From: Haliotis cracherodii
Lineage: Eukaryota
Direction of reading: 5' to 3'
Length of the DNA stretch: 64,000 bases
NCBI RefSeq assembly: GCF_022045235.1
Contig: NW_027266319.1
Span: 66,154,001-66,218,000 of the forward strand
The translations under genes were made by a program, and so were the position numbers. Shown in pieces: positions 27,201 through 57,143 of the stretch; the stretch's first letter is position 1; the number at the start of each line of letters is the position of its first letter. A model generated the notes under the pieces. It did no database searches. It saw only the letters and a list, made by a program, of their open reading frames with translations, and had not been told where the DNA came from.

Positions 27201-30200
27201 GGTCATCACGCCCTAAAGTACCAGATGGATTAGTTGGCAGTGCTAACGAAGTTGAGATTGTAATTGACGGAGTACCTGCACAAGCATTATTGGATACAGG
27301 AGCTACAGTGTCAATTGTCTCTGAGACATTCTATAAATCCCATTTGCAGCACATTGTGCTTGAGCCTCTTGGTGATATTTTGGATATTGAATGTGCTGGA
27401 GGGGAGTCACTCCCTTATCAAGGATTTATACAGGTCAATGTCACCCTTACAGGTGGGGGTGTCAGCCCTCAAGATCCTGTTTCCTGTTTGCTCCTAGTTG
27501 TTCCTGAAACAAGGTATAATGTTCGAGTCCCTGCTTTGCTGGGTACGAATGTTTTGGAATGTCTTCTTGATGATTGTAGGCAGCTACATGGACCAAGATT
27601 TCTACAGAAGGCAGCTTTACATACCCCTTGGTACTTAGCCTACAGAAGCATTGTACTCCGGGAGAAGGAGTTAGCACGCAATGGATGGTGTCTTGGTCTC
27701 GTCAGAAGTACAGAGACCAAGAATATTACCATTCTTCCCAACAGTAATGTCATAATAAAGGGTCGGATCACAAAGGGATTGACATCACCAGGAATTTGTG
27801 CACTTCTTCAGCCTACTCTCAGGTCATCACTTCCGTCTGACATTGATGTTGCTCCAACACTCATCACTTACAATAGTTCAAGGCCAGAGATTGTTGATGT
27901 ACACATCTCGAATGTAACCACACAGACCTTACGTATACCTCCAAAGGCCGTTCTCTGTGAGGTCCAGCCAGTTACCATACAGGATTCACCCTTATGCCTC
28001 CCTGTTGAAGCAGATGTGTTGACAGATCAGATAGAGATTGATAAGGGAGAATTAACAGAGAAGGAGATCAAACATGGATTGGATGTAATCATGAGATTTC
28101 AGGATATATTTTCAAAGAATGAGGAGGATATTGGGCAGTCTTCTATGGTACATCATCAAATAGAACTCATGGATAACTGACCATTTAAACAGAGGCACCG
28201 CCGCATACCACCTGCCATGTATGAGGAAGTCCGTAGTCACCTGCAACAGCTCTTATCTGCTGGTGTTATTAGAAAGTCACACAGCCCTTGGGCATCGAAC
28301 GTTGTATTGGTTCACAAAAAGGATGGACGACTCAGGATGTGTGTTGATTATCGCCAGCTGAATAATCGTACCATCAAAGACTCGTATGCTTTGCCAAGGA
28401 TTGAAGAGCTCCTAGATTGTCTTGGTGGCATGAAATACTTTTCGGTGTTGGACATGAAAAGCGGATACCACCAGGTTGAAATTGAGGAAGGACACAAGTC
28501 ACGCACAGCATTCACTGTTGGACCGCTAGGATTCTTCGAATACAACAGAATGCCATTTGGGCTATCCAATGCACCAGCTACATATCAGCGACTCATGGAA
28601 GAATGCCTAGAGGGTCTTCATCTCAACATATGCCTGATTTACCTCGATGACCTCATCATATTTTCCAGAACTTATGAGGAACATCTTGAGAGACTACAGC
28701 TCGTTTTTCGTCGTCTCCAAGAATGTGGCTTAAAGCTCGCACCGAAGAAATGTAAATTTTTCAAGCGAAAAGTCAGATATGTAGGGTACATTGTATCTGA
28801 AGCTGGGATTGAAGCTGATCCCGAGAAAGTGAACAAGATCAGAGCTTGGCCTACACCATCTAACCCAAAGGAAATCAGAAGATTCCTTGGATTTGCAGGC
28901 TATTACCGCAAATTCATCAAGGATTTCTCAAAAATCTCAAGGCCTTTATCTGAGCTGATGCCTAAGTCTTCCTCCAAGAAATCTCGAGGACCCTCTAAAG
29001 ATGTAGGCTGGATCTGGGGTCCAAAACAGGATGAGGCTTTCAATGAGTTGAAGCTTCAACTGTGTTCTCCACCTGTACTGGGCTATGCAGACTATGCAAA
29101 GCCCTTCGAACTCCATACTGATGCCAGTACACAGGGATTGGGTGCAGTCTTATACCAACATCAAGATGGCCAGCTTCGAGTCATTGCCTATGCAAGTAGA
29201 GCATTGGGGCGATCTGAGAAGAACTATTCAGCACATAAACTTGAGTTTTTGTGCTTGAAGTGGTCCATCTCAGAAAAGTTCCATGACTATTTGTATGGGC
29301 ATGATTTTGTTGTGGTTACCGATAACAACCCGTTAACCTATGTACTCACCAGTGCTCGTCTTGATGCAACTGGGCATAGGTGGTTGGCTGCACTAGCGAG
29401 CTACAACTTTAGTATCAAGTATCGACCAGGAAAGGCCAACATTGATGCTGATACGTTGTCTCGCTTATCAGATCATCACAATCAAGTTGAAGATGAACAA
29501 ATATCAAAGGATTCCGTGAGAGCCATTTGCAATACTATCCATGTCTCAAGTTTGGTTGAAAGCCTGTGTCTCTCTACGGATGTAGTTGAATCAGATGATG
29601 AGCTGGGAGATGTCCAGTGCGAGCTCAATGCAAGGGAATGGAGGAGAGCTCAAGCCAAAGATTCATCCCTCCGAATAATTATGGAACACTTGAGGAATGG
29701 GACAACTCCGAACCGGATGCACTTCATCGATGACCCTGACATGAAATTGCTATTGAAATGTTTTCACCAATTCCGGATGAAGAGAGGAGTCCTCTACAGA
29801 ATAACAAGCATAGACGGAATGGACCGGGAGCAGTTGGTTCTACCAATGAGATGCCGTGTAGCAGCATTGCGTAGCTTACATGACAACGTTGGACATCCAG
29901 GCAGAGATAGAACTTTATCCCTTTTAAGGGATAGATTCTACTGGCCTGCGATGGCTAGAGATGTAGATGCACACTTGCAAGGATGTGAGCGTTGTCTGCG
30001 TAGGAAGACACCAACCAGCCGAGCACCAATGATAAGTATCCAGACATCAGCACCTTTGGAACTTGTATGTATGGATTTCCTCACATTGGAACCATCAAAA
30101 GGTGGATTGGAGCATGTCCTAGTGGTAACTGACCATTTTACCAGATACGCCCAGGCATATCCGACCAAGAACATGTCAGCCAAAACTACTGCTGAAGTTT

Positions 30201-31525
30201 TCTTTAACAATTTTGTTGTTAACTATGGACTACCAAGACGAATCCATTCAGATCAGGGAGCTAACTTTACAGGTAAATTGATGCAGGAATTGTGCCAGCT
30301 CCTGAAGATTGAGAAGTCACGAACAACACCGTATCATCCCATGGGTAATGGGATGTGCGAGCGTTTCAACCGAACACTCTGTGACATGCTAGGCACTCTG
30401 GATCCTGACCAGAAGAAGAATTGGAAGTCCTATATAGGTCCTTTGGTACATGCCTATAATTGTGTGCGACATGAAACAACGTCAACATCTCCGTTCTTTC
30501 TGATGTTTGGAAGACTTCCAAGATTACCTGTTGATTTGGCCTTTGGATTAGACTTAGAGCCAGAAAAGTCCAGGTCTGTTTCTGAGTACACCAGGTCTCT
30601 CAGAGAACGTTTGAAGCAGGCCTATGAGTTGGCATCAGCAGCAGCAAAGAAGGCCCAGTCCAAACAGAAGGCAGGCTACGACCAGAGAGCTCGGGCTGCA
30701 ACCTTGGAGCTCGGGGACAGGGTCCTTGTTAAGATTGTAGCATTTGACGGGAGACACAAGCTGGCTAACAAATGGGAGGATGATATGTACATTGTTCTCA
30801 GTCAGCCGAATCCATCCATTCCCGTCTTTGTCGTTGGCAAAGAGAATGGTGAGGGAAGGAAGAGGACACTCCACAGAAACCTTCTTTTGCCAGTAGGCTA
30901 CATTCCTACCTTGGAACAACCTGTTCCAACACCCAGAACTGTGGTCCCAACGCCGAGAACTGTGGTCCCAACCCCCAGAAGAGTGGTCCCAACACCACAA
31001 AAACGACTGACATCACCATCCCTGACAGGTACATCAGAGAAATCGCACCAAGATGATGAGAGTTCTTCAGATGATGATCATCCACATGTCTACTCCCATT
31101 CATATCATGCTCCAGTGTTCACTGATTCATCAGTGGACGGGCCAGCTGAAGCACAGACAGCGAGTGTGAGAAATGAAGAGGCTAGTACTGTCCATGATGA
31201 GAGGGAGGAAGGGACGTCTGAAGACTTCAGGCAGCCACATCAGACATCAGCTGCAGGTGGCGATTTCAACAGTGAAGCATCCAATGAAGAGGATCGGCCA
31301 AGACAGAGAGAAACACCAATTCCAGTTCCACAGCGATCGGGCCGAACCCGAACGCAACCGAGGTGGATGCAAAGTGGCGAATATGTTCTCTCTGCAGTAG
31401 CTACTCCAGACTGGTTGGTGAGAGCGGATTATCTGAATTCTCTTGCCACTGAGGCAATGTTTTCTCACCAACCACAAAGGCTAACTGAGGCCATTCTAGA
31501 TGTTGTCACGGGTAAAATGAAATGA
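27158..31525 (+). CDS. pol: Pol polyprotein (PR, RT, RNase H, integrase) with one in-frame TGA at 28178-28180
   Basis: LLDTGA protease, YLDD RT, TDAS RNase H, HHCC and D,D(35)E integrase. ORFs 27095-28180 and 28217-31525 share a frame. PTPRTVV 21-bp repeats near 30925-30998. Confidence 0.95.
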
Positions 31526-33072: not shown

Positions 33073-36000
33073 AAAGAAACATACAATTTGACGGTGAATG
33101 GGAGAGGGCTTTCAAGGGGGCTTCACCTCGATTTAAAAGAAAAAGACTTGTACTGTCAAACATCAAAGCTGATATGCCTTTTGACGTAGTTCGTGATGCT
33201 ATTGTAGCATACGCCAAGAAACAAGATGTCTATGTGAGCATGGTCAGACTTTTGAAACACTGGACCGGTATGTACCCAACATATACACTGCGGATCAACA
33301 TTGACACTGGATCAGCACATAAAGTTCTTGAAAATTGAACATTTCTGGCCAGAGAATGTCAAATGCCGCGACTGGGTGTCCTGGCCGCGGCGAGATGCTG
33401 GAAAAAAGTAACCATAAACATGTTTAGGTTGCTCCTAATACTGTTCATGCTGAACATCGGCACTTGGAATACCAGAGGTGCACTGTACAGTACCTTGAAA
33501 ACATAGCTAACAAACAGTGTTAACTGTTTCTGAACACTGGTTGACCAAAAGAACTGAGACATTTTTCGACTCGATTGTTCGTCATATGACGCCGTGGTAA
33601 AAATCAAAGAAAACCAGAGAGGATACAGAGGCGAAGGTGGAGTTGCTATTTTAGTTAAAAAGGACTCGTTCAGTGATATGCAGACTTACGTCCCTGAGTA
33701 TGACGGAGTAGTTGCTGTAAGGCTATCTAGACCCAACTATGTTGACCAATCTGTGGTCTATACACTCCTTCCCTCTACCAATAAGGATGTGTGTGCCTAT
33801 CAAGAACCATTGAAGAAAACATTCGAGGTTGTTGATGAACTCTCACAAACCAGTCATACTATCCTGTGCGGCGACTCCAACACAGACATAACCAATAATC
33901 AAAACTCGCATCGATCACGCCTACTCAAAGAGTATCTGTCTGTGCAGAATATGGTATCTTCCTATGACAGCGGTAAAGTAGTAGGCCAACTAATGACATG
34001 GAGGAACAAGAATTTCACACAATCGTCCGTAATTGACTATGTATTTGTACCTCAACATCTACAACTATCTGTCAACAAGACACGTATATATGATTCAACT
34101 CCTTTCGATGTGTCTGATCACTTCCCTGTTATAGTGTCCATACATGATGACAAGCTAAACAGCACTACATGTAAAGCGGACATGCCGTCGACTCCATACA
34201 AATGGACAAAAGCTAGTCACTTAGAACTAAGTATGTATGAAGCCAAAGTTCACAGATTGCTTGGTGATGTAATGCTTGACACTGGGAATATAGGAGCTGA
34301 TGTAATAGAGAGTTATTTTGACTCGATTGTCAGCGCACTAAAGACGTCTGCTGCTAAGTTCATACCACGTGGACACTATAGAGCTCACCTGAAACCGTAC
34401 TGGAAGAGTTCAAATCTTGACCTCTATCATTACAAGATGCGCCAGGCGAAAAGATTGTGGTCAGCAGAAGACAGGCCTCGGGGTGCCGGCAACGACTCGT
34501 ATACCCTAAACAAACAGGCTAAATGTGACTTCCGACGTTGCAAAAGACAGGCTGAGAGACAATGGAATAAAGAAAAATATACTGAAATAAACTCAGCATG
34601 TGAAGTAGATATTGCTGAATTCTACAGGATTGTAAAGAAACAAAGACAATCTAAGACTGTAAATACACACCTTAGGTACAAAGAACGCTGTTGCAATACA
34701 CCATCAGAGGTGTGAAACTTGTGGACAGACTACTATGCATGTGAAGTAGATATTGCTGAATTCTACAGGATTGTAAAGAAACAAAGACAATCTAAAACTG
34801 TAAATACACACCTTAGGTACAAAGAACGCTGTTGCAATACACCATCAGAGGTGTGAAACTTGTGGACAGACTACTATGCAGATTTATTATCACCTCTTGA
34901 CCGGCCAGAGTTTGACAACGACTTTCGTATTGAGACGGACTCTAGAATAAACAACATCTCAAAGATACCACTTCTGGACGATGATCCTATACTGAAGAGA
35001 GACATAGAAATACACGAACTAAAACGACTGAAACAAAGCTTAAAAATGAGAAAATCACCAGGACCGGACCAAATCACAAATGCACATATCTATTTCGCTG
35101 GAGATATGCTTCTAAAACACTTAACCCAGCTGTTTAACATGATGATACGAACATGCTACAGCCCTGCACTGTTGAGATCTGGAACAATTATTCCAATATA
35201 TAAAGGAAACAATAAGGACAGATTGGATCCTGCAAATAACAGAGGTATCACTCTGACGTCCGTGGTGGGAAAACTGTTCGAAAAGATCCTATTAGAGAGA
35301 ATTGAGAAATATATCAAATATGTGGAGCCCGACTTCCCACATAGATTACAATGTGGCTTCAGTCGAGAACATGGTGCAAACATAGCTACCTACATACTCA
35401 AAGAAGTCATATCTTTCTACACGGAAAGGTCTTCCAATGTATTCACTGTGTTTCTTGATAATGAGAAAGCGTTTGATCGCATTTGGCACAATGGACTACT
35501 CCTAAAATTATTCATCCTTGGTGTGCAAGGGAAAGCCTGGCATATCATACGTCAGTCGTATCACGAATCTACTGCATATGTCAAATATGCCGGTGAGACA
35601 AGTCGAACGTTCCCAATCGGACAAGGTGTAGGACAAGGACATGTTTTATCCGCCTGGATGTTCCTTGTGTATATCAATGAGCTTATAATCCGCCTTGACC
35701 ATTTGAAACAAGGTCTTATGCTTGGACGTGATCACTTCCCAGTTGTCCTACTCGCGGATGACACAACTCTCATAAGCTCAACAAGTAGTGGCCTATGCAT
35801 GTCCTTACAGACTGTACATCAATATGCTTGCCAATGGAGATTGACATATAATGCAAGCAAAAGCTGTGTTCTGGTGTTTACAGGTGGAAACAAAATCAAC
35901 CAACCATATTCTTTTAGACTAGGTAACCATATACTGAAAATGAAATCGAACACAATATATGCAGGTTCTATTATCAGTACTTATTTAAAATCCGCAAGGA

Positions 36001-36771
36001 CCAGGAGACTTGCGCCAAGGCGAGGAAGATTTTGAATTCCCTGAGAGACATTGGACTAAGAGCAGGTGGTCTGAACCCAGTCTGCTTTATGAACATATGG
36101 CGCAGAGTAAAAAATTCCAGGTGCCTTCTTCGCGTGTGAACTGTGGTCAAATATGTCCAAGACAGAACACAATGAAATTGAAAAACTCCAGCGCTACTTT
36201 GCACGTAATGTACAAAATTTGTAAGATCTCCGACCGTTGCAACTATTCAGACGCTGGGATTGTGGACAATGACATCTGTGATTGACAAAATGAAGCTGAT
36301 GTTCCTTGGGAGGATGTGTAGAAGCAACCACAGATATGCCCCGAAAAAGGTGTTCTATTTCAAGTGTGCTCAATATATAACAGGCAGTGACAAAAGTAAG
36401 TCTGTAACACATGATCTACTCAATGTGGCAAAGAAATATGAATTATGGACCATCTGCGAGATCACCCTGAATTAAACAGATTTATTAAAATTCACAGTAA
36501 GCTTGTACCTCATAGACTGTGTAATATGTGTATTCTGTACAATATACCAACTAGACCAATGTATGCACTTGTGAAGCTAGGAACACTACCAATAACAACC
36601 GGTCAGTGTTTAATGTGTGATGAGGAGTGCGATGACATAATAAAGCACCAACTGCTATGTTGTACAGCTTTAGCTGATGCAAGAACACCCCCTATGAACA
36701 TCTATTTGGCTCTTTAAACCTCGAACAATACATGCGTATTGAGGACTGTGCAGATGACGAAGTCAAACTTG
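33073..36771 (+). mobile_element. LINE-B 5' part: end of ORF1 plus APE-RT ORF2 (same clade as LINE-A), disrupted
   Basis: ORF1 end FWPENVKCRDW; ORF2 has GTWNTRG, GDSN, IDY, SDH, DNEKAFD, QGVGQG and LADD; stops and frameshifts. It breaks after ...DDEVKL. Confidence 0.92.
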
Positions 36772-37429
36772 CACAAGAAAAAATACCCATATATACAAAA
36801 TATACAATTTTGTATATTTGATATTTCCAAAATATACAATTTTGTATAGTTGGTATTTCCAAAACTATACAATTTTGTATATATGGTTAGATTTTACCAC
36901 TGCTTCATTCAATTTCATCACCCCCTTATAGAAGGTTTCACATAATATGTGGTTGCAAAGTTTACTAATGATACCGAACAGTATTATTATTGCATGTGAC
37001 AATAATGCTTTAATACTATTTTCATTATGACAACTATATGATGTTATGACATAATTTGTATTTCGTTATGTTTTACATAAGAAATAGAACATTTGTACAG
37101 ATCTTAATAACAGTTTGATCAATATAAAATGCGTACGCCAGCAACAAGTAGTTGAAAGTAGTTTTAAACATTAAACAGATGCTCGTCAACCCGTAGTCCC
37201 AGATAACGATATGATTCTACATAGACCAGTGTTTGCCCAGCGTAGAGGAATCTGGTTAATCTGTATCACTTAACGAGTTTGAATAGCTTACTCTGCCCAC
37301 AGTCGAGAGCAGCACAGTAATTAGTAGTTTAGACCAGGCGAATACACTGGTCACACTTGACTGGTCTGTCTGTTGATTCGGTCACCTGCCAAATGGGGTG
37401 TCTGACAATTGGGTGTGAACCTTACAGAG

Positions 37430-39170
37430 GAAGTTATTTTATGAATGCGTCACGTGTTTCAAAAGAGATGACCATTATCTAAGTAAAATACTTCTAAGAT
37501 CATAAAGGACATAACATTTAATAAAGTGAAATTCATTTTCGACAAACTTTTATGAACAAATTTAAAACAGTGCGGGCAGATTCTATTTTCTAAAAGGTTT
37601 GGGGGGTTGTAAATCGTCCTGTTTCGATCCAGATCTAAAACTAGCTAAAATGCGACGGTGGTCCCTGTATTTAAAACATAAGGAGCAACAACGTTACGAT
37701 CATGAAAGTTCTTAATGTATTGCCCTTAACGTTATGTTTATCGTTCCAAAGCTGTTCTCCAGCTCAGTTCATCTTTGTTTACGAGAACATTTTTAATATG
37801 GGCAATTTTCTTCTTTCGGGACATTGGAGCAGTCATAATATTCATAACATCATAAATATTAAGATTACAGGCAATTTTAACAACAACTTTAGTACTCCAT
37901 AAACTTTTACATAGTAACCATTTTCTTCATCAAAGCGTTACAAGTACTGTTATTAAATCTTGGGGTAGTCTAAAAACATTAGCATGTAATGTAACAAACG
38001 GGGAGGAGAGACCCATGTCTCCATTATTGGCTATACTGGAGGTACCGTTACTAACACCAAGAAATAATTTACAGGCTCTATTTTGGATTAGATTAACGTT
38101 TTATCCTCATATACCAGAGCCATAGAACATTACCGGCTGAACAAGACTTTCATACAGTTTCATAAAAACATCATAAGACATACACCCAACAGAATAAAAC
38201 AAAGACAAAGCATGGCTGACAGAATTGTACAACTCTTTCACAGTTTCACATATCTCGATGCTCGTCAACCCGTAGTCCCAGAAAACGATATGATTCTACA
38301 TAGACCAGTGTTTGCCCAGCGTAGAGGAATGAAACCGATGATCTCGGTTGTGATTTCTAAAATGAATTACGTTTGTCTTATTCATATTCACTGACAGTTG
38401 CCAACGTGTTGATCATTCATGCAGTACATTAAGCATGGATTGTAATCAACATTCATTGGGGGCAGTTAATGCAATATCGTCAGCATACATTAAAATGGAG
38501 AGCATAGTCTCATCAACAAGTACGCCACAATTGAGATTGTTAATAGCCAGGTCGTTAACATACACAGAAAATATAGCTGGGGATAATTTACAGCCTTGCC
38601 CTACACAATGTTAAACAGTAAAACGTACTGTAAGAAAGAAATTCTCCTACACGTGCAGTAGAATTGACATCGACATACAATCGACTTGATAGCATTCAAT
38701 ATCTTTCCTCGAACTCCAATATTCCTCAGCTTCGCTATAAACGGTGTCGAAGGTTTTTTTTACATCAACAAATGTAACAAAGGTTGATTGTTTTGTTTTT
38801 TTCTATGCTGAACTAAAGACGTTTAAACCTATAAATGATCAATACAGTCTCATTTGGATCTAAAATCATTTTGCTTATCAGCTATGATATTGTCCTTTTC
38901 AAGCCACTTAGTCTTTAATTGAGTACATAAGCATATACTTGTTAGGAATAGATGTTACAATGATACCAAAGGGTTTCTAAAATCCTTCATACCGCTCTTA
39001 GGAATAGGATGGATATATCGCTGTTCCACATAGCTGGTACAGTTCCATTTACAAAGCAATAGTTAATAATTCTGTGCGACAAATCAACTGAACTTACATT
39101 TTTTTAACACTTCTGCAGGAATATCATCCACACCTGTAGCCTTTCCATTCTTAAGTCTAAAGACTAAAGA
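37430..39170 (-). pseudogene. Old degraded LINE ORF2 (L2/CR1 group) inside the CMC-like element
   Basis: GKATGVDDIPAEVLK, LMYADDIAL (38476-38487), YRYLG-type motif, KLYESLVQPVMFYGSG, VENEFHF. Confidence 0.8.
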
Positions 39171-40804
39171 CTAATGTGATGTCTGGGAGTGAACCTTACA
39201 TGTTTATCATTTATCACACCCATTTCTTGAACTAGCTACTCCGAATTGAGCCATAATTCATTCACCACAGTCCTAAGGGGAAATTCAAACATATCCACCT
39301 ATAATTCACGACTACTGCAATCTTGTCAAATAACATGTGCTTGACATCAGGTCGATTTTATTAATATCTTGTAATGACTGTTGGAATATTATCTATGCAT
39401 TATCCTGTCTAAAAATCTAGATATATTTACAATATCATGTATGCATTTTTGAATCATTGTATTCCGGAGTGGTCTTCATATAAACTTCTTGACCAATCCG
39501 CTTCATGTACATTTTCAGAAAAACAGAACATAACATGGGAATACCGTTCGAATTGAGCCTCGCTCAATTTCCCTGTGCGCTGTGATTTTTTATTTATTTT
39601 TTTTAAATGAAAATTTTACAGGGACTAGCTGTGCTACCACAATACTTGTGTTAATTAATATTGATAACATTGAATGTTAAACCATTTTTACAGTTTTGTC
39701 TAATTTTAGCGATAATGAAAACTGAGTAGAGATAAGATATATTGATGAACAACGTCTTTATTACAGTTAGGAGCGACGCTTAGGTGTATGTTGTAACACC
39801 ATTATCAAGCAAGTGATGTTGTTCATCCACAGATCTTATCCTCTCTCAATACTCCAACTTCTAAATTCCTCGCAAAGAAGATAATGATACTTGTTTTGAA
39901 TCTTGCCATCGTACAAAATGTTCTTCGCACAGTATTCAAGAAACAATGTAATATTAATATCATATTACGCTATCAATATATGTTGTGCAATATTTGAGAG
40001 GTTGGCGCCTGTCGGGACGGTGTGAGATGCTAAAACTGTTCTTGTATAGTCTAGTATCCTTTGGCTAGAGACAGCTACCACTGTTTATTCCCATTCAAGT
40101 TGCTAACGGTGTTTCATCTAAACAATATTATGGGAACGGAAATTAAAACATTACTTCATTCGTTATGCTACCATTTTTGAATATATGTTCATGAGATTAA
40201 TCTGTTCATTTTTCCGTATTTTTATTACGGAACTTATAGCTTTGTGTGGCATAAACGATCAAATAGTAAGATGACTACAATTAAAGGGCATTAATAACGA
40301 GAGGCTGTTCACATATATGTACATCATCACGCGAATCATTTCTGATTTTACTCGACGTAATAGCTAGAAACGTTACCTACTTCCGGCACAGCAGTTCTAG
40401 ATGTTAGCGCTATCTAGATTGGGTCCCTGACACATGCAGCTCTATTTGATGGGTGTATTGTACTTATTAAGCTGAACTTTTATAAATCTATTTTTTGCAA
40501 ATATATACTAGTCACTCCAACTAATCATTGTTACTAAAATATATAGGATTGTTGTCGATAACGTGTCCATTCGTATGTCTGTTTTACGTCTGTTCTACTA
40601 ATTATTGACACTAAGAAACTCGTACAATTTTTTAAATCATTACTAAACGTGTTGTACTTGTATACATCTTAATTGAAAAGTGGGAGAAAAGTTGCTTACT
40701 GTATTTTGCCGCCTTTGATGGTTCTGATGATCAAGATAACAACGTCAAAATCTAAGTATTCAGGAGTCGATGAGGATTCAGGAGTTTTTGAATTGATGCA
40801 GAAT

Positions 40805-43292
40805 GTTGTTGTTGTTGCATTAGGTGTTTAAGAGGTCGCCTTCTGCCTAGGCAATTTCGGCTGACCTGTCCCTCTTTGGGACTCCTGTGTGTGTGAAGGG
40901 TTCACATATCTATTGTGATTTCGGTGTTCACATAATTTCTGTTTTTGCATTGATATGATTTCTATTTTCTTATATTGATATGATTTCATTTTTATCCTTG
41001 GCTGCTCTGTTTATATACGTTCGAGCAGCTGTCCATCTCTCAGAAATAGAGTTAGTTTGGCCTTCGCTATTGCATCTCTTGGCTTTAGGAGATCTATGAC
41101 AGATAGCGGATCTAACTGCAATTCTTGTTTTAACCTAGCCCGGGCTGGGGCATGGTCTTGACATTCTAGTAACAGGTGGTCAATGGTTTCAGCCTGATTG
41201 CAAGATGAGCAAACCTTGTCATCGTGCTTTTTGTGACCAAGTCTGAGGCGTGAGATAGCAGTTTCAATTTTCCTTTCATTTGAGTATGAGTTTGGCTTTT
41301 GTTGGACCTTTGGTTGAATTTTGTATAGCCATCTGCCATTCTTACTTGCGTCCCATTGGGCTTGCCATCTTTTTGCTATGGAGGCTTTGATTTTGCTTTT
41401 TATCTCTAGTTTACTAAAGGGAATAGGCTGTATATCCGCTTTGTCTAGAGCTAGCTTCGCCAGTGAGTCTGCTTTTTCATTTCCATGAATATCTATGTGA
41501 GAGGGTATCCAACACAGCTCCACCTGTTGCCCTTGGTCCGATAGTTTTGTATATTCGTATAGAATATTGTTGACTGTGTTTGGCCTGGGGTTTGAGTTTC
41601 TCCCACTGATGGCCTGAAGTGCACTTAGCGAGTCTGATAGGACGACTGCCTTTGCTTCCGGGAGTTCCGGTATGAGTTTGAGTGCATGATGAATTGCCTC
41701 CAATTCAGCCATGAATACTGACTGACCATCAGGCAAGCGAACTGAATGTGCTTGGGGTTTGGAGCTGTGGATATGGATCCCGTAACCAGCACTGTTGTTG
41801 ATAGGATTCTTGGATCCATCAGTGTATATATGGGCCCAGCTGTCCCAGGTAGTTTGAATTTTAGTGATAGCTACTGATCGTAGTAGGGTTGGGTTTTCTC
41901 TTTTAATGACTTCTGATGTTAAAGCAGTGTCAACTTTGGGAGTTTGTAAAGTCCAGGGAGGGTGTAAACCTTTATAGTGACTTTCTGGAGGCTGAATGTC
42001 ATCGCAATTGTGACTTCGAATGAGTTCACGCACTAATATCCCAGATGGCTTTAGTGAGGGATTTTTTCGAGCTAGGGCTTCATCTCGAGCGTTTTTGTCT
42101 TGCCATATCATTTTAACCAAAGGGTTTGATGTTCGTCCCCAGAACGATAATATTGCCTGCTCTCTTCTTAGTTTCAATGGGAGTTCTCCTGTTTCTACTT
42201 GTAGTGCTTCTAGTGAGGTGCCTGTCGCTGCGCCTGTGGCCAGCATTAGGGCTTTGTATTGTATTCTGTCTAGGCGCCTCAAGACAGTATTTGATGCTGA
42301 GTGAAAAGCCTCACAACCATAGTCAATTTTTGATCTGATAAGAGCTTTGTAGAGGTCCAGCTGAGTGTCCCTCGATGTGCCCCAAGATGTGCCTGAAATT
42401 GCCCGTAATACGTTCAGGTCTTTTTGACATCTGTTTTCCACATATTCTATATGCTTGCGCCAAGTGAGGTGTTGATCAAGGATAACTCCAAGAAATATTG
42501 CAGATTTTTCGAATTTGATAGGTTTGCCTTTTATGGAGACACGGGGTATCATAGCATCTTTCCCCCGGCGTTTGAATAGAACTCCAACCGTTTTTTCATT
42601 TGAAAGGGTGAATCCCCATTTATTGCACCATTGATCTACTCCGTCCAGGGCTGACTGGAGTTTTTTTCTGATTTGTGAGATATCTCTGTGCTTTACCCAT
42701 ATTGCTCCGTCATCAGCGAACTTAGAAGTTTGGGTAGGAGAGTTGACATGGTCAAAAAGATCATTGATCATGATATTAAACAGGGTTGGGCTTCTGATGC
42801 TGCCTTGTGGCGTGCCATTGTCCAGTGCCATAGGATCCGATCGATTGTTCCCTATTTTAACTGATAGCGACCTGTCTTGCAGGAAGCTGTCTATGAAGTT
42901 TGCCATGTTCCCTTCAACTCCATTTTGTGATAGTTTTGAGAGGAGTCCGTCATGCCATACCATATCGAAGGCTTTGCTGAAGTCCAGAAATACTGCGGCT
43001 AGGTATTGTCTGTTTAATTGGGCTTTTTTTATTTCATTTTCCAGTCTTAGAATATGATCTAGACACGAGTGTCCCTTCCTGAAGCCACTTTGGTCAGGTT
43101 TTATGTGATTGCCAGTTTCAAGATGATGCATGAGCCTTTTTGTAACCATGGCTTCCATGGCTTTGCACATGTTTGAGGTGAGTGAGATAGGTCGATAAGA
43201 GTTTGGTAGGGCTTCTTCTTTCCCTTGCTTTAGCAGCGGGATAACCGCAGCATGTTTCCATGCTTTTGGGACTTCTCCTTTGGACCATAGAA
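40805..43292 (-). mobile_element. 5'-truncated I-group LINE (RT, RNase H, CCHC), young copy
   Basis: Open ORF to 41011 with a FADD RT; (CAA)n tail; 11-bp TSD TGATGCAGAAT at 40794-40804 and 43293-43303. Nearly identical to 9279-10983. Confidence 0.96.
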
Positions 43293-44550
43293 TGATGCAG
43301 AATCAAGGTTGGGGGTTATTATAGGCCTAATAGTGCACCACGTGATTTATGTCCAGGCCCCCGTGACATGCAGTTGTCATGTGACATGTAATTAACTAAT
43401 TGAATTGCAAAAACAATTCCGACAGCAAATAACCGCATCCACAACAACAATGCGTGGATGCAAAGAAAGAAACCATTTTAAACCCCTTTCTGTATATTTG
43501 TATTTGTATTCCTTTCTGAAACTATCATTCTACAAACAGTTGTGTTCACCGCCCATTGTGATACTTCTACTTAAGAAAATAAAAAAGGATGTTTATTTAG
43601 TCATTTGACATGCGTTCATTGTTAACAAAGATTAGTGTGAAAGGATTACTAAGTTTGTCATCCAGTATAATGCACTTCCTCGATTAGCATAATTAGAACA
43701 GAGTTTGTAATTAGTTATATCCTGACTCGAGTTAACCAAGGCAGCTACATCAGTTGTGATTTATGAATTTGTGGAATCTTAATAAATAAACGACCGCCTG
43801 TCGCAAAAGTGCAAACGAACATTGAACACGCACAGTCGCAGATTTTCCTTTCGTATATTTGAGGGTGAACGTGAACGAAGCCGTGCAAGATGCTTTGCAG
43901 CGATTTGTCTTCAGAACACATATTGAGCTCAGGTAAGTTTATTAATGATGATATTTTCATTCATTCATAGATATGGCGATCATGGGCGCTGACACCATAT
44001 GTATTCGCAATAGAACATTTGGAAGACTAGACACAAATTGAGTCACAATATGACAACATCAAATCAAAGAATTTGTTTAATGCAACAGATTTAAGGCATT
44101 GAAATTGTACATTATTATAAAATACATGAGTGTCGCTACGTCTCATGTCAAATACATCAATGAATTATATATAAACAAAATTAATTTAATATTACTATGA
44201 ATTTATAACTAAAATTATGGAGTCTTGCATGTCGAGCCAACAAACTATAGTACATATTATTCACCTTGGAATTCTGTTTACTGTGCTTGCTGTGGGGTCC
44301 ACCCTATTCCCAAAATGGACAGTTCCAAATACTACTGCGTAAAATATTAATGCCAATTTGGAGAAAATTACCAAATGAATGAATGCAAGTAAAACTTAAT
44401 CCAGGGGAAAACTGTTCAATATCACGTCAAAGTGTGCCCAAGTGCAAAACCTAATCTTAAAATGAAAGGACTTTGGTATTAATATTTCAGTCAGATTCTG
44501 ATATTGGCGAGTTAACGAGGTAAGCCCTATGATTAATTGTCTTATATACC

Positions 44551-44590
44551 TTTCTGGTGTCCACCGCCGTGAACCATACTCACTCACTCA
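44551..44590 (+). mobile_element. Internally deleted SINE fragment
   Basis: TTTCTGGTGTCCACCGCCGTG joined directly to the (ACTC)n tail. Confidence 0.6.
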
Positions 44591-46662
44591 GATAAATAAC
44601 CCCTTTTACATAAGTCATGAACAAGCATATATATATTGCCAATATTTTGCTCCCATGTTTTCGATAATTGTACCAAAGAACAAGAATTAATCCTAGAATG
44701 TCTACACATAAATTCATTACGGACGCTGCAATAATGCCGATGAGACGTTAATTTTTACCTCGCCCACTCACTGATTACGGACTATTTGTCGGGCAATAAG
44801 AGGTACAAGCCACGAGAAAATGTAGAGTGAGACCAACGTAGCCATAACACCTTTTTACAAGATGGAAAACATCTTTGCTGTTAGTGATTACATATAATGA
44901 AATCTTACCAATTCACAGGCTATACGTTGTAGAACTGAATGCTATGCCAAGTCATTCCTACCTGATACCATTAATAATTGGCATAGTCACCGGAAAAAGA
45001 GGATTATTAAACTTAGACAATGTTATATTCAGTTGAGCCATGATACCAGATTTTGTCACTTTAAACTTCCATCGGCTTAAAAAACACATCTCAGATAACA
45101 CATCATGCATGCTCTTGTGGCTGTCACAATGGTACACTGCATTAATTTTTACACATGTCCCAACTACAATATATTTAGAAACGATTCTATTCTAAAGGTT
45201 CAGTGAGGTCCTAATCAGTGGTTTATTGGAAACAATTTGAACAGTGCCTAATTTAGCTATTTTGAAATCGGCCATGTACATCCGACGTTCGGGTGGATTT
45301 GCACATATATAATAACTAGTAGTAAGACTTAATACATACTTTGAGACACGTATTAAGTATTAAACAGTTAAATAGCTTTTCTTAGGAAACCCCTTTCCAT
45401 CAACCGCACTGTTGACCTATCTTTTTTGTTCTGTTTTGATGTATTGATGTATTATTTAATACAATATGTATATCTCCCCTCATCCCAATGTAAATAAAAG
45501 GAAGCTTGGTGGGGACTTTTGGGATATAAGAAATGAATACAGACTGCCATACTGTCTGAATGTCTTAACACTCACCGGGTGTGACCACGTAGACAGGATA
45601 ACATTCGGGTTTCTCATAATTACTCCATGAGCATGCTTGGTATTGTAGCTTGGGGATATTAAATGTAAGTTTGTTATCAGGGGAGATTGATAGTGAACTT
45701 TTAGTACCAGTTAGATATGATATCTATATGACTTCTTTCTGTTTGACAGAGGATTAAGGGTATATGTGTGGGTAATCCTTCCACGCTGATGAAAGAAAGT
45801 CACTCTACTAGTTCATGTAATCTACGTCAAATAAGATCAGAACATATGCATTATTACAACATACTCAGGATACCAATAACAACGAAATGTACAAATTAAC
45901 AAACATGATCAATATTATTATTACATGTTAATGCCTTGTATGTAAATATAGCTATATAAACATATGTTTAATTTTTCAGCTTGTGTGAAGTCGTCCATAA
46001 ATACAAGAAAACGTATATTTTCCCAAAATTATATTACCCTCAAAAGGGCAATTATATTCATGTTACATTTTTTCAGTCTCTTTTTTTAATTCGAATTACG
46101 TAACATTTATGTTACTTTGATTTTATTAGACCCATGTTGTTGTTACAGACCCAGGGATTGACTAGGTTCATTACATGTCATAAAAGTGCCGGGACATGTG
46201 GTGGCAATACATTCTCTAATTAACACCTGTCACAAAGGGACGGGCAATTTGGGTTTGTCCTCAGGGAATGTGTTATGCAATTTGTGTATTCACGAAATAA
46301 CATTCAACAAATTATGTACATGGTCCTGTGATGTAGGATTCATGCATTCGTACTTTTTTTAAATAAATGAATTGCATTTTTTTTCTTAACCGTGTGCGAA
46401 ATACGCATAATGTCGGAAAGCGTAAGTTAAATACTGACTTCATCCCAAAATAAATCACAAACCCTCTCTTATAATTTGTATATTATTCCATATTTTAATT
46501 ATGTAAATCACGTTCCTGTCACTTTTAATGTAGAATACGTTAGTCACTCAACCAATTCCATTATTATTTTCCCAAAGATCAAAGATTAAAGCAGTTATCA
46601 AGATTTATTTTCAATATCTTTAAAAATACTTAATCTTTACATTGAAACTGCCATCATGATGT

Positions 46663-46668
46663 ATTATT

Positions 46669-46699
<31 letters not shown>

Positions 46700-46704
46700 T
46701 TATT
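46663..46704. repeat. (ATT)n microsatellite
   Basis: Direct reading. Confidence 0.9.
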
Positions 46705-46980
46705 GATGTACATATGGTTTGCACCCAACCATGCGCGTGCCAAATTATACAGCGTCAAGCTTTTAGAGCGCCAACTAAGTTTTCCAAAGTAGAAATTAAG
46801 CCAAATGAATATATATCAAGTTTCCTTTTGCTAGAACATATGCAAGCTGTTGTGTTTTTTCAAGGTAATCTTCGTTCTCGCATTGATAACAATATTAAAA
46901 GAACAAGTATTATAAAATATAATACGGGAATATATTACACACGTTATTTACGCATCCGGTTGCTCATAATACAATTTTCC

Positions 46981-49020
46981 CCAAGGACTACCGTTTTACA
47001 AAACGCGATTTTCCGCGTTTCCGCCGAGATTTCACATTATATTAATGTATATCTACAATGAAACCGACAGCTCAGAACAAACCAAATTCAACACTTTTAA
47101 GTAGTGATAAAATAGTTTTCATCCTCTGTGCAATCCACTCTGTTGGCATATGTGCACGAGAGCATGTTACAAAACACATCGCGGCCTCCCCGTAAAACGA
47201 ATCTAAGCTCAAACACTTTCAATACAGAAGTTACCGCCAAAGCAATCACCCCCGACAGCTAATCCTCTCTGTGCATTTGACCATAAAGTCTACTCACATA
47301 CCAAGCACCGCGCCAGGAAAAGTACCAGACGCCTCAACCGCCCACCCGTCAATATCATTGCAAGGACAGTATGTACTCCCGCTAACAGTGTGGAGTACTA
47401 ATTAAACATTCCAGTAATGTTTCCCGCCACTATATCATTTTTTTGTAACTTCTGATACTATTTTGCACATACAAAACAATCATAGAGCAATACATAGCAA
47501 TTATCCTCCCTTACCAACATATACAAAGAAACACAGTGCTCAACACTTCAATTTGCACATATATAATAATTATACACAATAATTATCTCCCTTTACCAAT
47601 ATATACAAAGAAAACACAATATTTTCGTAGTATTTTTAAAAAATAATCCTTGATAATATTTTGTAGATGATTTTTCCCGAGGACTACCGTTTTACAAAAC
47701 GCGATTTTCCGCGTTTCCGCCGAGATTTCACAAAATAACAATGTATATCTACAATGAAACCGACAGCTCAGAACAAACCAAACGCAACACTTTTAAGTAG
47801 TGATAAAATAGTTTTCATCCTCTGTGCAATCCACTCTGTTGGCATATGTGCACGAGAGCATGTTACAAAACACATCGCGGCCTCCCCGTAAAACGAATCT
47901 AAGCTCAAACACTTTCAATACAGAAGTTACCGCCAATGCAATCACCCCCGACAGCTAATCCTCTCTGTGCATTTGACCATAAAGTCTACTCACATACCAA
48001 GCACCGCGCCAGGAAAAGTACCAGACGCCTCAACCGCCCACCCGTCAATATCATTGCAAGGACAGTATGTACTCCCGCTAACAGTGTGGAGTACTAATTA
48101 AACATTCCAGTAATGTTTCCCGCCACTATATCATTTTTTTGTAACTTCTGATACTATTTTGCACATACAAAACAATCATAGAGCAATACATAGCAATTAT
48201 CCTCCCTTACCAACATATACAAAGAAACACAGTGCTCAACACTTCAATTTGCACATATATAATAATTATACACAATAATTATCTCCCTTTACCAATATAT
48301 ACAAAGAAAACACAATATTTTCGTAGTATTTTTAAAAACTAATCTTTGATAATATTTTGTAGATGATGTTTCCAAGGACTACCGTTTTACAAAACGCGAT
48401 TTTCCGCGTTTCCGCCGAGATTTCACATTATAACAATGTATATCTACAATGAAACCGACAGCTCAGAACAAACCAAATTCAACACTTTTAAGTAGTGATA
48501 AAATAGTTTTCATCCTCTGTGCAATCCACTCTGTTGGCATATGTGCACGAGAGCATGTTACAAAACACATCGCGGCCTCCCCGTAAAACATATCCAAGCT
48601 CAAACACTTTCAATACAGAAGTTACCGCCAAAGCAATCGCCCCCGACAGCTAATCCTCTCTGTGCATTTGACCATAAAGTCTACTCACATACCAAGCACC
48701 GCGCCAGGAAAAGTACCAGACGCCTCAACCGCCCACCCGTCAATATCATTGCAAGGACAGTATGTACTCCCGCTAACAGTGTGGAGTACTAATTAAACCT
48801 TCCAGTAATGTTTCCCGCCACTATATCAGTTTTTTGTAACTTGCTGTTACTATTTTGCACATACAAAACATTTATAGAGCAATACATAGCAATTATCCTC
48901 CTTTACCAACATATACAAAGAAACACAGTGCTCAACTTAAAACACTTCAATTTGCACATATATAATAATTATACACAAATACATAATAATTATCTCCCTT
49001 TACCAATATATACAAACAAA
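46981..49020. repeat. Three tandem copies of a ~695-bp unit
   Basis: GGACTACCGTTTTACAAAACG recurs at 46985, 47681 and 48376; units are nearly identical. Confidence 0.95.
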
Positions 49021-49189
49021 ACAAATTTGGATACACCATATATACAAATTTGTATATTTTGTATATGTCATATATACAAACTTGTATATTTTTGTATATA
49101 TCATCTTTCCAATCTTGTATATCCTTTGGAAATATCATCTTTCCAAAGGATATACAAGCTTGTATATATGGATTTTTTTTGCAGTGTTG

Positions 49190-49473
49190 TGACATTGCTA
49201 GGTGGTATAACCCCTATTGTAGAGGATATGAGCCTTGACAGATGGGCTGAATTCATATCTTCTATATCACGAGACAAAAGCTCCTGGAACCTGCGATCAA
49301 TGCTCTATCTATAGACAATATATCTCATACCAGGACCCCGACATGTAATTATTCAATATTGCCATTTTCTCTGCATAATGTTCGTGTAAATATGCTGTGT
49401 TAACATGATTCCAAATGTATATCACTCTCCGAAATTAATGGAGGAAATAAAGATCATTCATTCATTCATTCAT
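49190..49473 (+). mobile_element. LINE-B 3' end
   Basis: VTLLGGITPIVEDMSLDRWAEF aligns with LINE-A SFLLGGLPDCMKNLELEIWGET. 3' end GGAGGAAATAAAGA plus (TCAT)n. Confidence 0.85.
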
Positions 49474-51365
49474 ACCCATACACACGTACATACACGCATG
49501 TACACACTCACATACACACTTACACGCATGCACACATGCCCATACACACGTACATACACGCACGTACACATACCCATACAGACTTACATTCACGCATGTA
49601 CACACACCCATACAAACTTACATACATGCACGTACACACACCCATACAAACTTAATAAACGCACGCACACACACCCATACAGACTTACATACACGCACGT
49701 ACACACACCCATACAGACTTACATACATGCATGTACACACACCCATACAGACTTACATACATGCACGTACACACACCCATACAGACTTACATACACGCAT
49801 GTACTCATACCTATACAGACTTACATACATGCACGTACACACACCCATACACACTTACATACACGCATGTACTCATACCTATACAGACTTACATACATGC
49901 ACGTACACACACCCATACACACTTACATACATGCACGTACACACACCCATACAGACTTACATACACGCATGTACACACACCAATACACACTTACTAACAC
50001 GCATGTACACACACCCATACAGACTTACTAACACGCATGTACACACACCCATACACACTTACTAACACGCATGTACACACACCCATACAGACTTACTAAC
50101 ACGCACGTACACATACCCATACACGTACATACACGCATGTACACACACCCATACACACTTACATACACGCATGTACACACACCAATACACACTTACTAAC
50201 ACGCATGTGCACACACCCATACAGACTTACATACACGCATGTACACACACCCATACACACTTACTAACACGCATGTACACACACCAATACACACTTACTA
50301 ACACGCATGTACACACACCCATACACACTTACTAACACGCATGTGCACACACCCATACACACTTACTAACACGCATGTACACACACCAATACACACTTAC
50401 TAACACGCATGTACACACACCCATACACACTTACTAACACGCATGTGCACACACCCATACACACTTACTAACACGCATGTACACACACCCATACACACTT
50501 ACTAACACGCATGAACACACACCCATACACACTTACATACATGCACGTACACACACCCATACAGACTTACTAACACGCATGTACACACACCCATACAGAC
50601 TAACATACACGCATGTGCACACACCAATACACACTTACTAACACGCATGTACACACACCCATACACACTTACATACATGCACGTACACACACCCATACAG
50701 ACTTACATACACGCATGTACACACACCCATACACACTTACTAACACGCATGTACACACACCCATACACACTTACATACACGCACGTACACACACCCATAC
50801 AGACTAACATACACGCATGTACACACACCTATACAGACTAACATACACGCATGTACACACACCTATACAGACTTACATACACGCATGTACACACACCAAT
50901 ACAAACCTAATAAACGCACGTACACACACCCATACAGACTAACATACATGCAAGTACACACACCCATACACACGTGCATACACGCACGTACACACACCAA
51001 TACACACGTACATACACGCTCGTACACATACCTATACAGACTTACATACACGCATGTACACATACTGATATAAACTTACAAACACGCACGTACACACACC
51101 CATACAGACTTACATACATGCATGTACACATACCCATACAGGCTTACATACACGCATGTACATATCCATACAGACTTACATACACGCATGTACACATACC
51201 AATACACGCGCACATACACGCACGTACACATATCCATACATGCGTACATACACGCATGTACACACATCCATACAGACTAACATACACGCATGTACACACA
51301 CCCATACACACGTACATACACGCAAGTACACATACCCATACACACTCACATACACGTGTACACGT
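49474..51365. repeat. 34-bp minisatellite segment
   Basis: Same monomer, including the ACTTACTAACACGC variant also seen at 23150-23330. Confidence 0.95.
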
Positions 51366-52330: not shown

Positions 52331-54700
52331 ACAACGACATGGACTTGTCTCCTCCAAAATGACTCCGCCGATAGGTCGCATCAGTCTAAACAGTTAATGT
52401 TTGATGGGTGTGAACTAAGGGTGTGCAATATTACCGGTATATCGGTAAATTGGGGTTCATTCTTTCCATGATACGTGCCACAATGACATTATATCAGGAG
52501 CTTTCAAATTGAGATGATGATCATTTGTTTTTGTTTTACACTTGCCAAATACCAGCGTGCATCCAGGGTCCCAAGATCAGTGTTCGAAATAACCACGCTG
52601 GTAGATCTCGTGTCGGTGAAGAGTTTAGTCATGGCCTGCAGGTTCTTATTCTGTTGGTCCTGCGTATTTATTAAATGAGTTAACATTATGTTTACCAGCA
52701 TCTTGTTTTGTTCTATTTATGAACTTCAAATCATTCCTTGACGTTTCAGATTTCTTCTGAATTCAAAATTTAGAAATATACAATATATCGTGCTACGTAT
52801 TGTAAAATATTGTGATACGCTTTAATCCCTGTACTATACTTGAAACTTACTGCAACTGAATTTATGAGGATGCCACACAACTGTATGTCAGTGGCCTGTA
52901 AGGATGTGTTCTTGGCCAGGCAAGCCAATGGGTCAAAGACCAACACCATCAGGGTACAGAAGTTCTGAGAATGATCAAAGCCAAAAAAACACCAGGGAAC
53001 AGTGGGTCTGAGAATGATCAAAGCCCAACACCACCAGAGTCAGTGGTTCTGAAAATGATCGAAGCCCAAACACCACCAGGGTACAGTGGCTATGAGAATT
53101 ATCAAAGCCCAACACCATCAGGGCACAGTGTTTCTGAGAATGAACAAAGCCAACACCACCAGGGTACATACGCTCTGAGAATGATCAAAGCCAAAAACTA
53201 CCAGGGTACAGCGGTTCTAAAAATGATCAAAGCCAAAAACTACCAGGGTACAGCGGTTCTGAGAATTATAAAAGCCAAAACACCACCAGGGTACAGTGGT
53301 TCTGAGAATGATCAAAGCCCAACACCACCAGGGTACAGTGGCTCTGAGAATGCTCAAAGCCCAACATCATCAGGGCACAGTGGCTCTGAGAATGATCAAA
53401 GCCCAACACCATCAGGACACAGTGGTTCTAAGAATGATCAAAGCCCAACACACCTGGGAACAGTGGTTCTGAGAATGAACAAAGCCCAACACCCAACACC
53501 AACAGGGTACAGTCGGTCTCAGAATGAACAAAGCCCAACACAATCAGGGCAGAGTGGTTCTGAGATTGATCAAAGCCCAACACCACCAGGGTACAATGGT
53601 TTTGAGAATGATCAAAGCCCAACAAAACCCAGGGTACAGTGGTTCTGAAAATGACCAAAGCCTAACAAATCTGGGCACAATCGTTCTGAGAATGATCAAA
53701 ACCCAACATCATAAGGGCACAGTGGCTCTGAGAATGATCAAAGTCCAAACACCACCAGGGTACAATGGTTCTGACAATGATCAAAGCCCAAAATCCACCT
53801 GTGTACAGTGGTTCTCAGAATGATCAAAGCCCAAAACCACCAGGGCACATTGGCTCTGAGAATGATCAAAGCCCAACACCATCAGGGTACAGTAGTTCTG
53901 AGAATGACCAAAGCCAAACAAACCACCAGGGTACAGCGGTTCTGAGAATGAACAAAGCCCAACACCACCAGGGTACAGTGGTTCTGAGAATGACCAAAGC
54001 CCAAAACCACCAGGGTACAGTGGCTCTGAGAATGATCAAAGCCCAACACCATCAGGACACAGTGGTTCTAAGAATGATCAAAGCCCAACACAGCTGGCAA
54101 CAGTGGTTCTGAGAATGATCAAAACCCAACATCATCAAGGCGCAGTGGCTCTGAGAATGATAAAAGCCCAACACCAACAGGGTACAGTCGGTCTTAGAAT
54201 GAACAAAGCCCAACACAATCAGGGCAGAGTGGTTCTGAGATTGATCAAAGCCCAACACCACCAGGGTATAATGGTTTTGAGAATGATCAAAGCCCAACAA
54301 AACCCAGGGTAGAGTGGTTCTGAAAATGACCAAAGCCTAACAAATCTGGGCACAATCCTTCTGAGAATGATCAAAACCCAACATCATCAGGGCACAGTGG
54401 CTCTGAGAATGATCAAAGCCCAAACACCACTAGGGTACAATGGTTCTGAGAATGATCAAACAAAACATGAGCAGGGCACAGTTGTTCTGAGAATGATCAA
54501 AGCCCAACACCATCAGGGCACAGTGGTTATGAGAATGATCAAACAAAACATGAGCAGGGCACAGTTGTTCTGAGAATGATCAAAGCCCAAACACCAACAG
54601 GGTACACTGGTTCTGAGAATGATCAAACTGAACATCAGCAGGGTACAGTGGTTCTGAGAATGATCAAAGCCCAACAGATAGAGGGTACAGGGGTTCTGAG

Positions 54701-54865
54701 TGAGTGAGTGAGTATGGTTTTACACTGCTTTTAGCAATATTCCAGCAATATCACAACGGGGGACACAAGAAATGGCTTTCACACATTGTTTTTATGTCGG
54801 GAATCGAACCTGGGTCTTCGGCGTAACAAGCGAACGCTTTAACCACTAGGCTACCTGACTGCCGC
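54701..54865 (-). mobile_element. SINE within the 42-bp satellite (copy a)
   Basis: Same SINE family; degenerate ACAGTGGTTCTGAG TSD. Confidence 0.93.
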
Positions 54866-55467
54866 ACCGCGGTTCTGAGAATGATAAAAGCCAAAACACC
54901 ACCCGGGTACAGTGGTTATGAGAATGATCAAAGCCCAACACCACCAGGGTAGAGTCGCTCTGGGAATGATCACAGCCCAACACCATCAGGGCACAGTGGC
55001 TCTGAGAATGATCGAAGCCAAACACCATCAGGGCACAGTGGTTCTGAGAATAATCAAGCCAAACATCAGCAGAGTACAGTGGATCTGAGAATGATCAAAG
55101 CACAAACACTAGCTGGGTACACTGGTTCTGAGAATGATCAAAGCCCAACATCATCAGGGCACAGTGGTTCTGAGAATGATCAAAGCCCAAACACTAGCTG
55201 GGTACACTGGTTCTGAGAATGATCAAACCAAACGTGAGCAGGGCACAGTTGTTCTGAGAATGATCAAAGCCCAAACACCACCAGGGTACAGTGGTTCTGA
55301 GAATGATCAAACCGAACATCAGCAGGGTAAACTGATTCTGAGAATGACCAAAGCCCAACACAACCAGGGCACAGTTGTTCTGAGAATGACCAAACCGAAC
55401 ATCAGCAGGGAACAGTGGTTCTGAGAATCATCAAAGCCCAACACCTAGAGGGTACAGTGGCTCCGAG

Positions 55468-55632
55468 TGAGTGAGTGAGTATGGTTTTACACCGCTTTTA
55501 GCAATATTCCAGCAATATCACGGCGGGGGACACCAGAAATGGGCTTCACACATTGTACCCATGTCGGGAATCAAACCCGGGTCTTTGACGTAACAAGCGA
55601 ACACTTTAACCACTAGGCTACCCGACTGCCCC
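55468..55632 (-). mobile_element. SINE within the 42-bp satellite (copy b)
   Basis: Same family and same insertion point. Confidence 0.93.
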
Positions 55633-56026
55633 ACAGTGGTTATGAGAAGATCAAAGCCAAAACACCACCCGGGTACAGTGGTTATGAGAATGATCAAAGC
55701 CCAACACCACCAGGACACAGTGGTTTTGAGAATTATCAAAGCCCAAAACCACCAGGGTACAGTGGTTCTGAGAAAGATCAAATCCCAAACATCTTCAGGG
55801 TATAGTTGATTTGATAATGCTCAAAGCCCAACACATCTGGGCACAGTGGTTCTGAGAATGATCAAAACCCAACATCATCTGGGCACAGTGGCTCTGAGAA
55901 TGATCAAAGCCCAAACACCACCAGTGTACACAGGCTCTGAGAATGATCAGAGCCCAAACACCATCAGGGCACAGTTGCTCTGAGAATGATCAAAGCCCAA
56001 CACCTAGAGGGTACAGTGGTTCTGAG

Positions 56027-56191
56027 TGAGTGAGTGGGTATGGTTTTGCACCGCTTTTAGCAATATTCCAGCAATATCACGGCGGGGGACACCAGAAATG
56101 GGCTTCACACATTGTACCCATGTCGGGAATCGAACCCGGGTCTTTGGCGTAACAAGCGAACGCTTTAACCACTAGGCTACCCGACTGCCCC
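56027..56191 (-). mobile_element. SINE within the 42-bp satellite (copy c)
   Basis: TSD ACAGTGGTTCTGAG / ACAGTGCTTCTGAG. Confidence 0.93.
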
Positions 56192-56984: not shown

Positions 56985-57143
56985 TGAGTGAGTGAGTATG
57001 GTTTTACACCGCTTTTAGCAATATTCCAGCAATATCACGGCGGGGGACACCAGAAATGGGCTTCACACATTGTACCCATGTCGGGAATCGAACCCGGGTC
57101 GTAACAAGCGAACGCTTTAACCACTAGGCTACCCGACTGCCCC
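56985..57143 (-). mobile_element. SINE within the 42-bp satellite (copy d, small deletion)
   Basis: Flanks identical to copy c, 958 bp downstream. Confidence 0.93.

Follow-up and report, generated by a model that had tools for sequence, protein, structure and literature searches.

In this study, we show that the 12,415-bp segment at positions 36772-49186 of a 64,000-nt stretch of the Haliotis cracherodii genome (GCF_022045235.1, NW_027266319.1:66,154,001-66,218,000, forward strand; hereafter the window) belongs to a multicopy family of non-autonomous En/Spm (CACTA) DNA transposons. In our reading, to which we give a probability of about 80%, a 9.9-kb core moved into an already decayed long interspersed nuclear element (LINE), LINE-B, and the interior consists mostly of old element DNA and nested retrotransposons. 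This reading builds on the directly observed ends, target-site duplications (TSDs), empty sites, collinear core and link to transposase remnants, and on two nested LINEs with TSDs of their own.

The element begins with CACAAG, ends with GCAGTG and is bordered by the TSD TTG at 36769-36771 and 49187-49189; the left junction reads GTCAAAC TTG CACAAG (TTG from 36769, to 36777) and the right junction GCAGTG TTG TGACATTG (49181-49197). Its 27-bp terminal inverted repeats (TIRs), starting with CACAAG on the left and CACTGC on the right, match at 22 of 27 positions. Subterminal repeats of 32 bp lie at 36789-36882 and 49026-49138, and the motif TATACAA, found 27 times in the whole element, occurs seven times in the first 130 bp and ten times in the last 190 bp. 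Like En/Spm elements, it has subterminal repeats in both orientations. The left part of LINE-B (33558-36771, plus strand), recognized from its open reading frames (ORFs), the RVT_1 profile and its paralogs, ends in the left TSD; the right TSD and the remainder of LINE-B occupy 49187-49470, an approximate right limit with satellite DNA next to it, and were placed by the paralogs and by alignment of the right flank to another LINE, LINE-A (LLGG..., tblastx E 0.002). The element inserted into LINE-B and duplicated its target, because all nine paralogous LINE-B loci examined, found by a genome search with the left flank, are uninterrupted: they carry a single TTG (AAAC-TTG-TGACATT; a TTACCTT variant at one locus) and run on into the right flank. 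A preliminary description made from the window alone had proposed the CAC...GTG ends, the 3-bp TSD, imperfect TIRs of about 27 bp and TATACAA subterminal repeats, and had suggested looking for intact or empty LINE-B copies; on all these points it was borne out. It had also described an in-frame split of a LINE ORF. The site does lie inside LINE-B, but "in-frame" carries no functional weight, since LINE-B is itself split over several frames and is missing about 105 bp that most paralogs have. A 144-bp tandem duplication (99.3%) lies within LINE-B at 34596-34880.

A pattern spanning both ends gave 83 genome matches and its control none. Each end gave more than 300 first-look candidates, of which the best 40 were scored. 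Within the fetched stretches, left and right ends faced each other at 31 loci besides the window, 5.1 to 46 kb apart, and an exact 3-bp TSD was present at 27 of these 31 (chance per locus 0.018), as the genome-wide pairing proposed earlier had anticipated. Two pairs among the paired loci have common flanks, leaving 29 independent sites. When pairing was loosened, 29 of 35 pairings had a TSD, and these 29 comprised 19 different trinucleotides (TTA twice). The window copy falls within a six-locus youngest clade (support 0.97), and its closest copy, at C6:0.70M (C2, C6 and so on denote contigs, and G000 the genome, in our coordinates), is identical to the window core in 9,809 of 9,959 columns when one LINE is subtracted from the window copy. 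The 9.9-kb core has moved as one unit, collinear in several copies, and here the earlier claim of a unit of about 10 kb moved whole holds. It is scarcely credible that the appearance of one large element is due to two unrelated short elements or to faulty assembly: other loci repeat the same collinear order of left end, interior and right end, with TSDs that differ, and the empty LINE-B sites match exactly. Loci L034/L003 and L036/L002 (C6:0.70M and C6:3.0M), and likewise L029 and L030 (C67:6.99M and 6.83M), have identical flanks and were copied with their surroundings; 16 kb of later insertions separates the two copies of the C6 pair. The flanks of L037, L051, L020, L033 and L006 place these copies inside other mobile elements, as in the window, with frames that we take to be Polinton-like and Tc1-like; a preference of the family for inserting into other transposons is possible.

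The family is assigned to En/Spm by its association with decayed transposase genes. The PF02992 (Transposase_21) profile gave 14 matches at 13 loci, including a 714-aa transposase frame that scores 36.5 bits against a Pfam cut-off of 28.6, and at two of the nine PF02992 loci examined (C80:30.32M and C56:27.56M) the family's left end lies directly 3' of the transposase at 86-87%. Body sequence from 43335 onward follows a transposase 3' remnant at nine of 11 further loci (67-88%), one of them also holding the 700-bp unit and right subterminal region described below, and C45:8.44M is arranged likewise. An older subfamily has the body in common at about 81% and has a 57-bp tandem array in common with the transposase loci. 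The window itself contains no transposase (best tblastn E 4.1), in agreement with the preliminary description. Because the left end adjoins decayed En/Spm transposase genes, the elements are non-autonomous CACTA elements and not Chapaev3, and we infer that the family descends from an En/Spm element by deletion. Many animal En/Spm families have a 2-bp TSD. An origin from Chapaev or Chapaev3 is very unlikely: CAC..GTG ends and 3-4-bp TSDs are hallmarks of that group, and the Chapaev3 elements Merrow, Garfield and Conan resemble ours in both ends and a 3-bp TSD, but all Chapaev3 elements examined in that source have strict TWA TSDs (PMC4079192), whereas here the targets are varied, with 19 trinucleotides among 29 TSD-bearing pairings, and the ends adjoin PF02992 transposase genes. 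The earlier label of a Pack-CACTA/Chapaev-like element of the CACTA/Mirage/Chapaev (CMC) superfamily therefore stands as a CMC non-autonomous DNA transposon, narrowed to En/Spm, and fails as Chapaev3.

The interior of the window copy is composite. The left end (36772-37172) comprises the TIR, the 32-bp subterminal repeats and DNA which in relatives follows the 3' end of the En/Spm transposase gene, matching the transposase loci at 86-87%. It is followed by block A (37173-40804, 3.6 kb), which is missing from the older subfamily and the transposase loci. In its first part (37173-37426), 37177-37251 duplicates 38257-38330, and 37415-37426 is the 12-bp TSD of an old 5'-truncated LINE at 37427-39188 (minus strand; reverse transcriptase (RT) end and 3' part; second TSD copy at 39189-39200), recognized from its TSD, an RT tblastn match and dispersed relatives at ten loci (78-87%), none of which has the family's ends. 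The rest of block A (39189-40804) is unplaced in origin, contains a short dispersed repeat at about 39716-39885 and ends in a LINE hotspot with a TSD at 40794-40804; for 39460-40780, all 19 loci with long matches lie in family copies and the remaining matches are the short repeat (best 40 of 1,144 candidates). Next comes a young 5'-truncated LINE (40805-43292, 2,488 bp, minus strand), which the preliminary description did not name; profiles, a 763-aa open frame and copy comparison identify its RT and RNase H, (CAA)n tail and 11-bp TSD, it is missing at the equivalent site of other copies, and it is 98.7% identical to a copy at window 9278-10984. That second copy has an 11-bp TSD and sits in a repeat with an empty copy at 3764-3898, its target being unlike the hotspot. 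An ancient body (43293-46973), common to the older subfamily (about 81%) and to transposase-remnant copies (67-88%), is followed by three tandem copies of a unit of about 700 bp (46974-49023), of which other family members have one to several, and by the right end with subterminal repeats and TIR (49024-49186). We conclude that about 6.3 kb (36772-37172 and 43304-49186) is old element sequence, in which small body parts absent from the older subfamily may be later insertions; 2.5 kb is young LINE, 1.8 kb old LINE and about 1.9 kb unplaced.

The components listed in the preliminary description (an old LINE, a SINE-like (short interspersed nuclear element) scrap, an exon-like piece and a triplication of about 700 bp) are all present. 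Its claim that 8.5-10 kb of chromosomal DNA had been captured is not supported: about 6.3 kb is element DNA, two LINEs are nested and block A sets a ceiling of 3.6 kb; capture in the window copy is possible for at most the block 37173-40804. It is thus improbable that the family is Pack-CACTA in the original sense, that is, with an interior of mostly chromosomal DNA that was captured in a single event or a handful of them and was amplified afterwards. The core does move whole, block A is absent from the older subfamily and the transposase loci and resembles repeat-rich intergenic DNA, and the former flank carried by a sister clade makes it likely that the family is able to capture DNA. However, the donor locus that had been expected for the cargo was not found as a solo locus among the scored candidates (37-40 per search), and the body is joined to transposase remnants in the nine of 11 older loci mentioned above. 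Nor was a host coding exon found, tblastn with 107 local proteins returning RT matches only; a 69-nt exon discussed below has stops in all three frames in 12 of 30 copies. Rfam gave no match at E 0.1, and ORFs of at least 75 aa in four representative copies held nothing gene-like as judged by eye.

Several observations weigh against an interior of mostly old element DNA moved by En/Spm. Some 1.9 kb within block A is of unassigned origin; the DNA searches scored 40 candidates each, of 266, 1,144 and 68, and only part of the matches of the 266-candidate search were confirmed inside family copies. Four of the 31 paired loci lack a TSD. The autonomous CMC transposase with these termini, which the preliminary description suggested seeking, is represented by decayed PF02992 genes adjoining the left end; no intact autonomous copy was found among the candidates, all 21 of which were scored, and the best copies are frameshifted. 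The right end was not found 12-22 kb inward of four of these copies, and no single locus unites left end, whole transposase, body and right end. This assembly may lack an autonomous partner that has both ends, and the body itself could be very old captured DNA.

The window copy probably arose as follows. The family would have come about by internal deletion of the transposase gene. Transposase supplied in trans, putatively binding the TATACAA subterminal repeats as in En/Spm, likely moved the 9.9-kb core into the already decayed LINE-B, and the young LINE would have arrived in the window copy or its direct parent. Block A presumably entered later, either through insertions into the element or through capture of chromosomal DNA between two neighbouring copies.

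A sister clade offers a likely example of such capture. At C2:32.84-32.86M, a TAT TSD encloses 19.6 kb in which a left end and an internal right end are followed by 6.5 kb of other DNA and then by a second right-hand part. Four other loci match the DNA past the internal right end at 90-99%, three of them over about 3.2 kb and the remaining one with part of it deleted. All five loci group in one clade (support 0.78); the left end survives at three of them, no two of which have the same flank. The added DNA begins mid-way in an old dispersed repeat, the upstream half of which is found in none of the three left flanks. We suggest that the clade likely carries at least 3 kb of former flank picked up by two-element capture, a model that fits because five loci share DNA beyond the internal right end, starting mid-repeat. 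Against capture, a complete outer end with TSD is present at one of the five loci only, with a fragment at one. The parental locus was not found among the best 40 of 5,535 and 40 of 4,380 candidates, and the cargo is repeat-rich with no gene seen. C67:51.42M, with CAA on both sides, was considered as the clade's original site and rejected, since its left flank does not continue the old repeat. One member of the flank-carrying clade, G000:C2:57825820-57872215, is a 46-kb left-to-right pairing full of nested LINEs and Polinton-like frames, and its outer end was not found within 50 kb.

The family has also been struck repeatedly by LINEs. Four of the six youngest copies carry a LINE at 40804/43293, with differing 5' truncations and TSDs of 8 to 11 bp; occupancy is four of nine when all copies with the junction or a close variant are counted. 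The inserts are alike at 97%, 79% and 66%, which indicates three LINE lineages, and two identically flanked loci differ by the insert, which must therefore be later than their duplication. Five more insertions, in the opposite direction, cluster at about 43780-43825, just upstream of the 69-nt exon (C15:0.84M, C67:51.41M, C4:40.43M, C1:41.88M and C6:22.26M). The TAAG-tailed LINE end occurs 1,696 times genome-wide and eight times in 322 kb of paired elements, against 0.46 expected and none in 112 kb of flank, an enrichment that is overstated because density is uneven along the one contig listed. Strict target specificity of this LINE was rejected, as 30 sampled ends had varied targets; with about 1,700 such ends at varied targets and three lineages at the site, the repeated site is a hotspot and not strict targeting. 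Tx1-type LINEs target DNA transposons and likewise land repeatedly at one DNA-transposon site; unlike them, the LINEs here have varied targets and belong to three lineages. LINE insertion may be directed to promoters, and the opposite directions of the 43780-43825 and 40804 clusters possibly reflect a two-way promoter.

The body contains a 69-nt piece between AG and GT (43864-43932, plus strand) that could act as a cassette exon. Contigs of three runs from three studies, which we guess to be RNA although none of the listed runs is catalogued as such, end loosely at 43932, the GT donor, and one of these runs also has a contig end at 43864, after AG. In two runs the downstream piece has a single G000 match, the first bases of an exon after its acceptor, and the upstream piece matches the end of the preceding exon, the intron in question corresponding to G000:C67:9855439-9856012; the search output did not show both exon ends on one contig, and the partner sequence of the third run had no G000 match at 2 mismatches. 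Taken by itself, the 51-aa host exon had no useful match in Pfam or PDB, and the name chitin synthase rests on exons 3.7 kb downstream, which match Chitin_synth_2 above the cut-off. These contig ends suggest that in related animals a chitin-synthase message probably acquires the 69-nt piece by splicing. The element insertion would be in other animals, because 62 kb around the gene in G000 holds no trace of the piece. Among 33 copies examined, 30 have intact sites, and 18 of these keep the piece open in the phase required. A captured conserved coding exon was considered and rejected: most differences from the C45 copy change the amino acid, stops occur in the older subfamily, and the piece is no more conserved than its neighbours. 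If splicing were confirmed, the cassette exon would add 23 residues to chitin synthase.

Elsewhere in the window, positions 25986-31525 hold gag and pol frames (403, 361 and 1,114 aa) labelled by eye as like those of a long terminal repeat (LTR) retrotransposon, a relative of which is nested in the family copy at C15:0.84M. Long tandem arrays of about 34-bp and 42-bp units, with many spurious open frames, occupy 12626-18070, 49471-51363 and 52900-61980.

Pack-TYPE elements are defined by captured coding DNA in the account of PMC8903248. In the model for Arabidopsis Pack-CACTA1, complementary ends are lost from two neighbouring copies that lie in direct orientation, and these copies then mobilize the DNA enclosed by them (PMC6379663). 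Pack-CACTA1 resembles our family in being non-autonomous, with a CACTA-type TIR core of about 26 bp and a 3-bp TSD, and its model fits the five-locus sister clade; in contrast, the plant cargo described there consists of gene fragments traced to source genes, whereas the sister-clade and window cargo is repeat-rich with no donor found, and the window copy is mostly element DNA and nested LINEs. In the animal Pack-TIR survey, few sequence-carrying TIR elements are multicopy (four of 370 cases), 323 are hAT or TcMariner, cargo is short (291 bp in one example), and En/Spm appears as a column head only in the supplements examined (PMC8277862). Those elements, like ours, enclose non-element DNA, and the multicopy cases have distinct TSDs; the survey required a unique parent at 90% or more (PMC8277862), and none was found for this family among the scored candidates. 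Compared with both systems, the window copy is non-autonomous and moved as a unit to sites with distinct TSDs, and the sister clade moved non-element DNA between its ends to several loci, with no parental locus found for either (for the window copy, one without ends). We found no cargo-carrying En/Spm or Pack-CACTA element in an invertebrate in the literature, Repbase and most subscription papers being outside the scope of this search.

The family is real, young and unusually large for non-autonomous En/Spm elements. It teaches that where the interior of a large non-autonomous element is "genomic-looking", it is often made of element DNA and nested repeats and not of host capture, and its near-identical copies, struck repeatedly at one base, offer a natural test of how LINEs choose their targets. 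The plant two-element model would be extended to animals by a young CACTA family in an invertebrate that moves 10-20-kb units and preserves a capture intermediate. We propose only tentatively that this animal CACTA family builds 10-20-kb units by two-element capture of chromosomal DNA, with a promoter-like stretch that draws LINEs to single bases and a frame-keeping cassette exon that enters host mRNAs, such as that of a chitin synthase in related animals; if true, it would be a multi-kilobase invertebrate Pack-CACTA system that also ferries LINEs and a portable exon.

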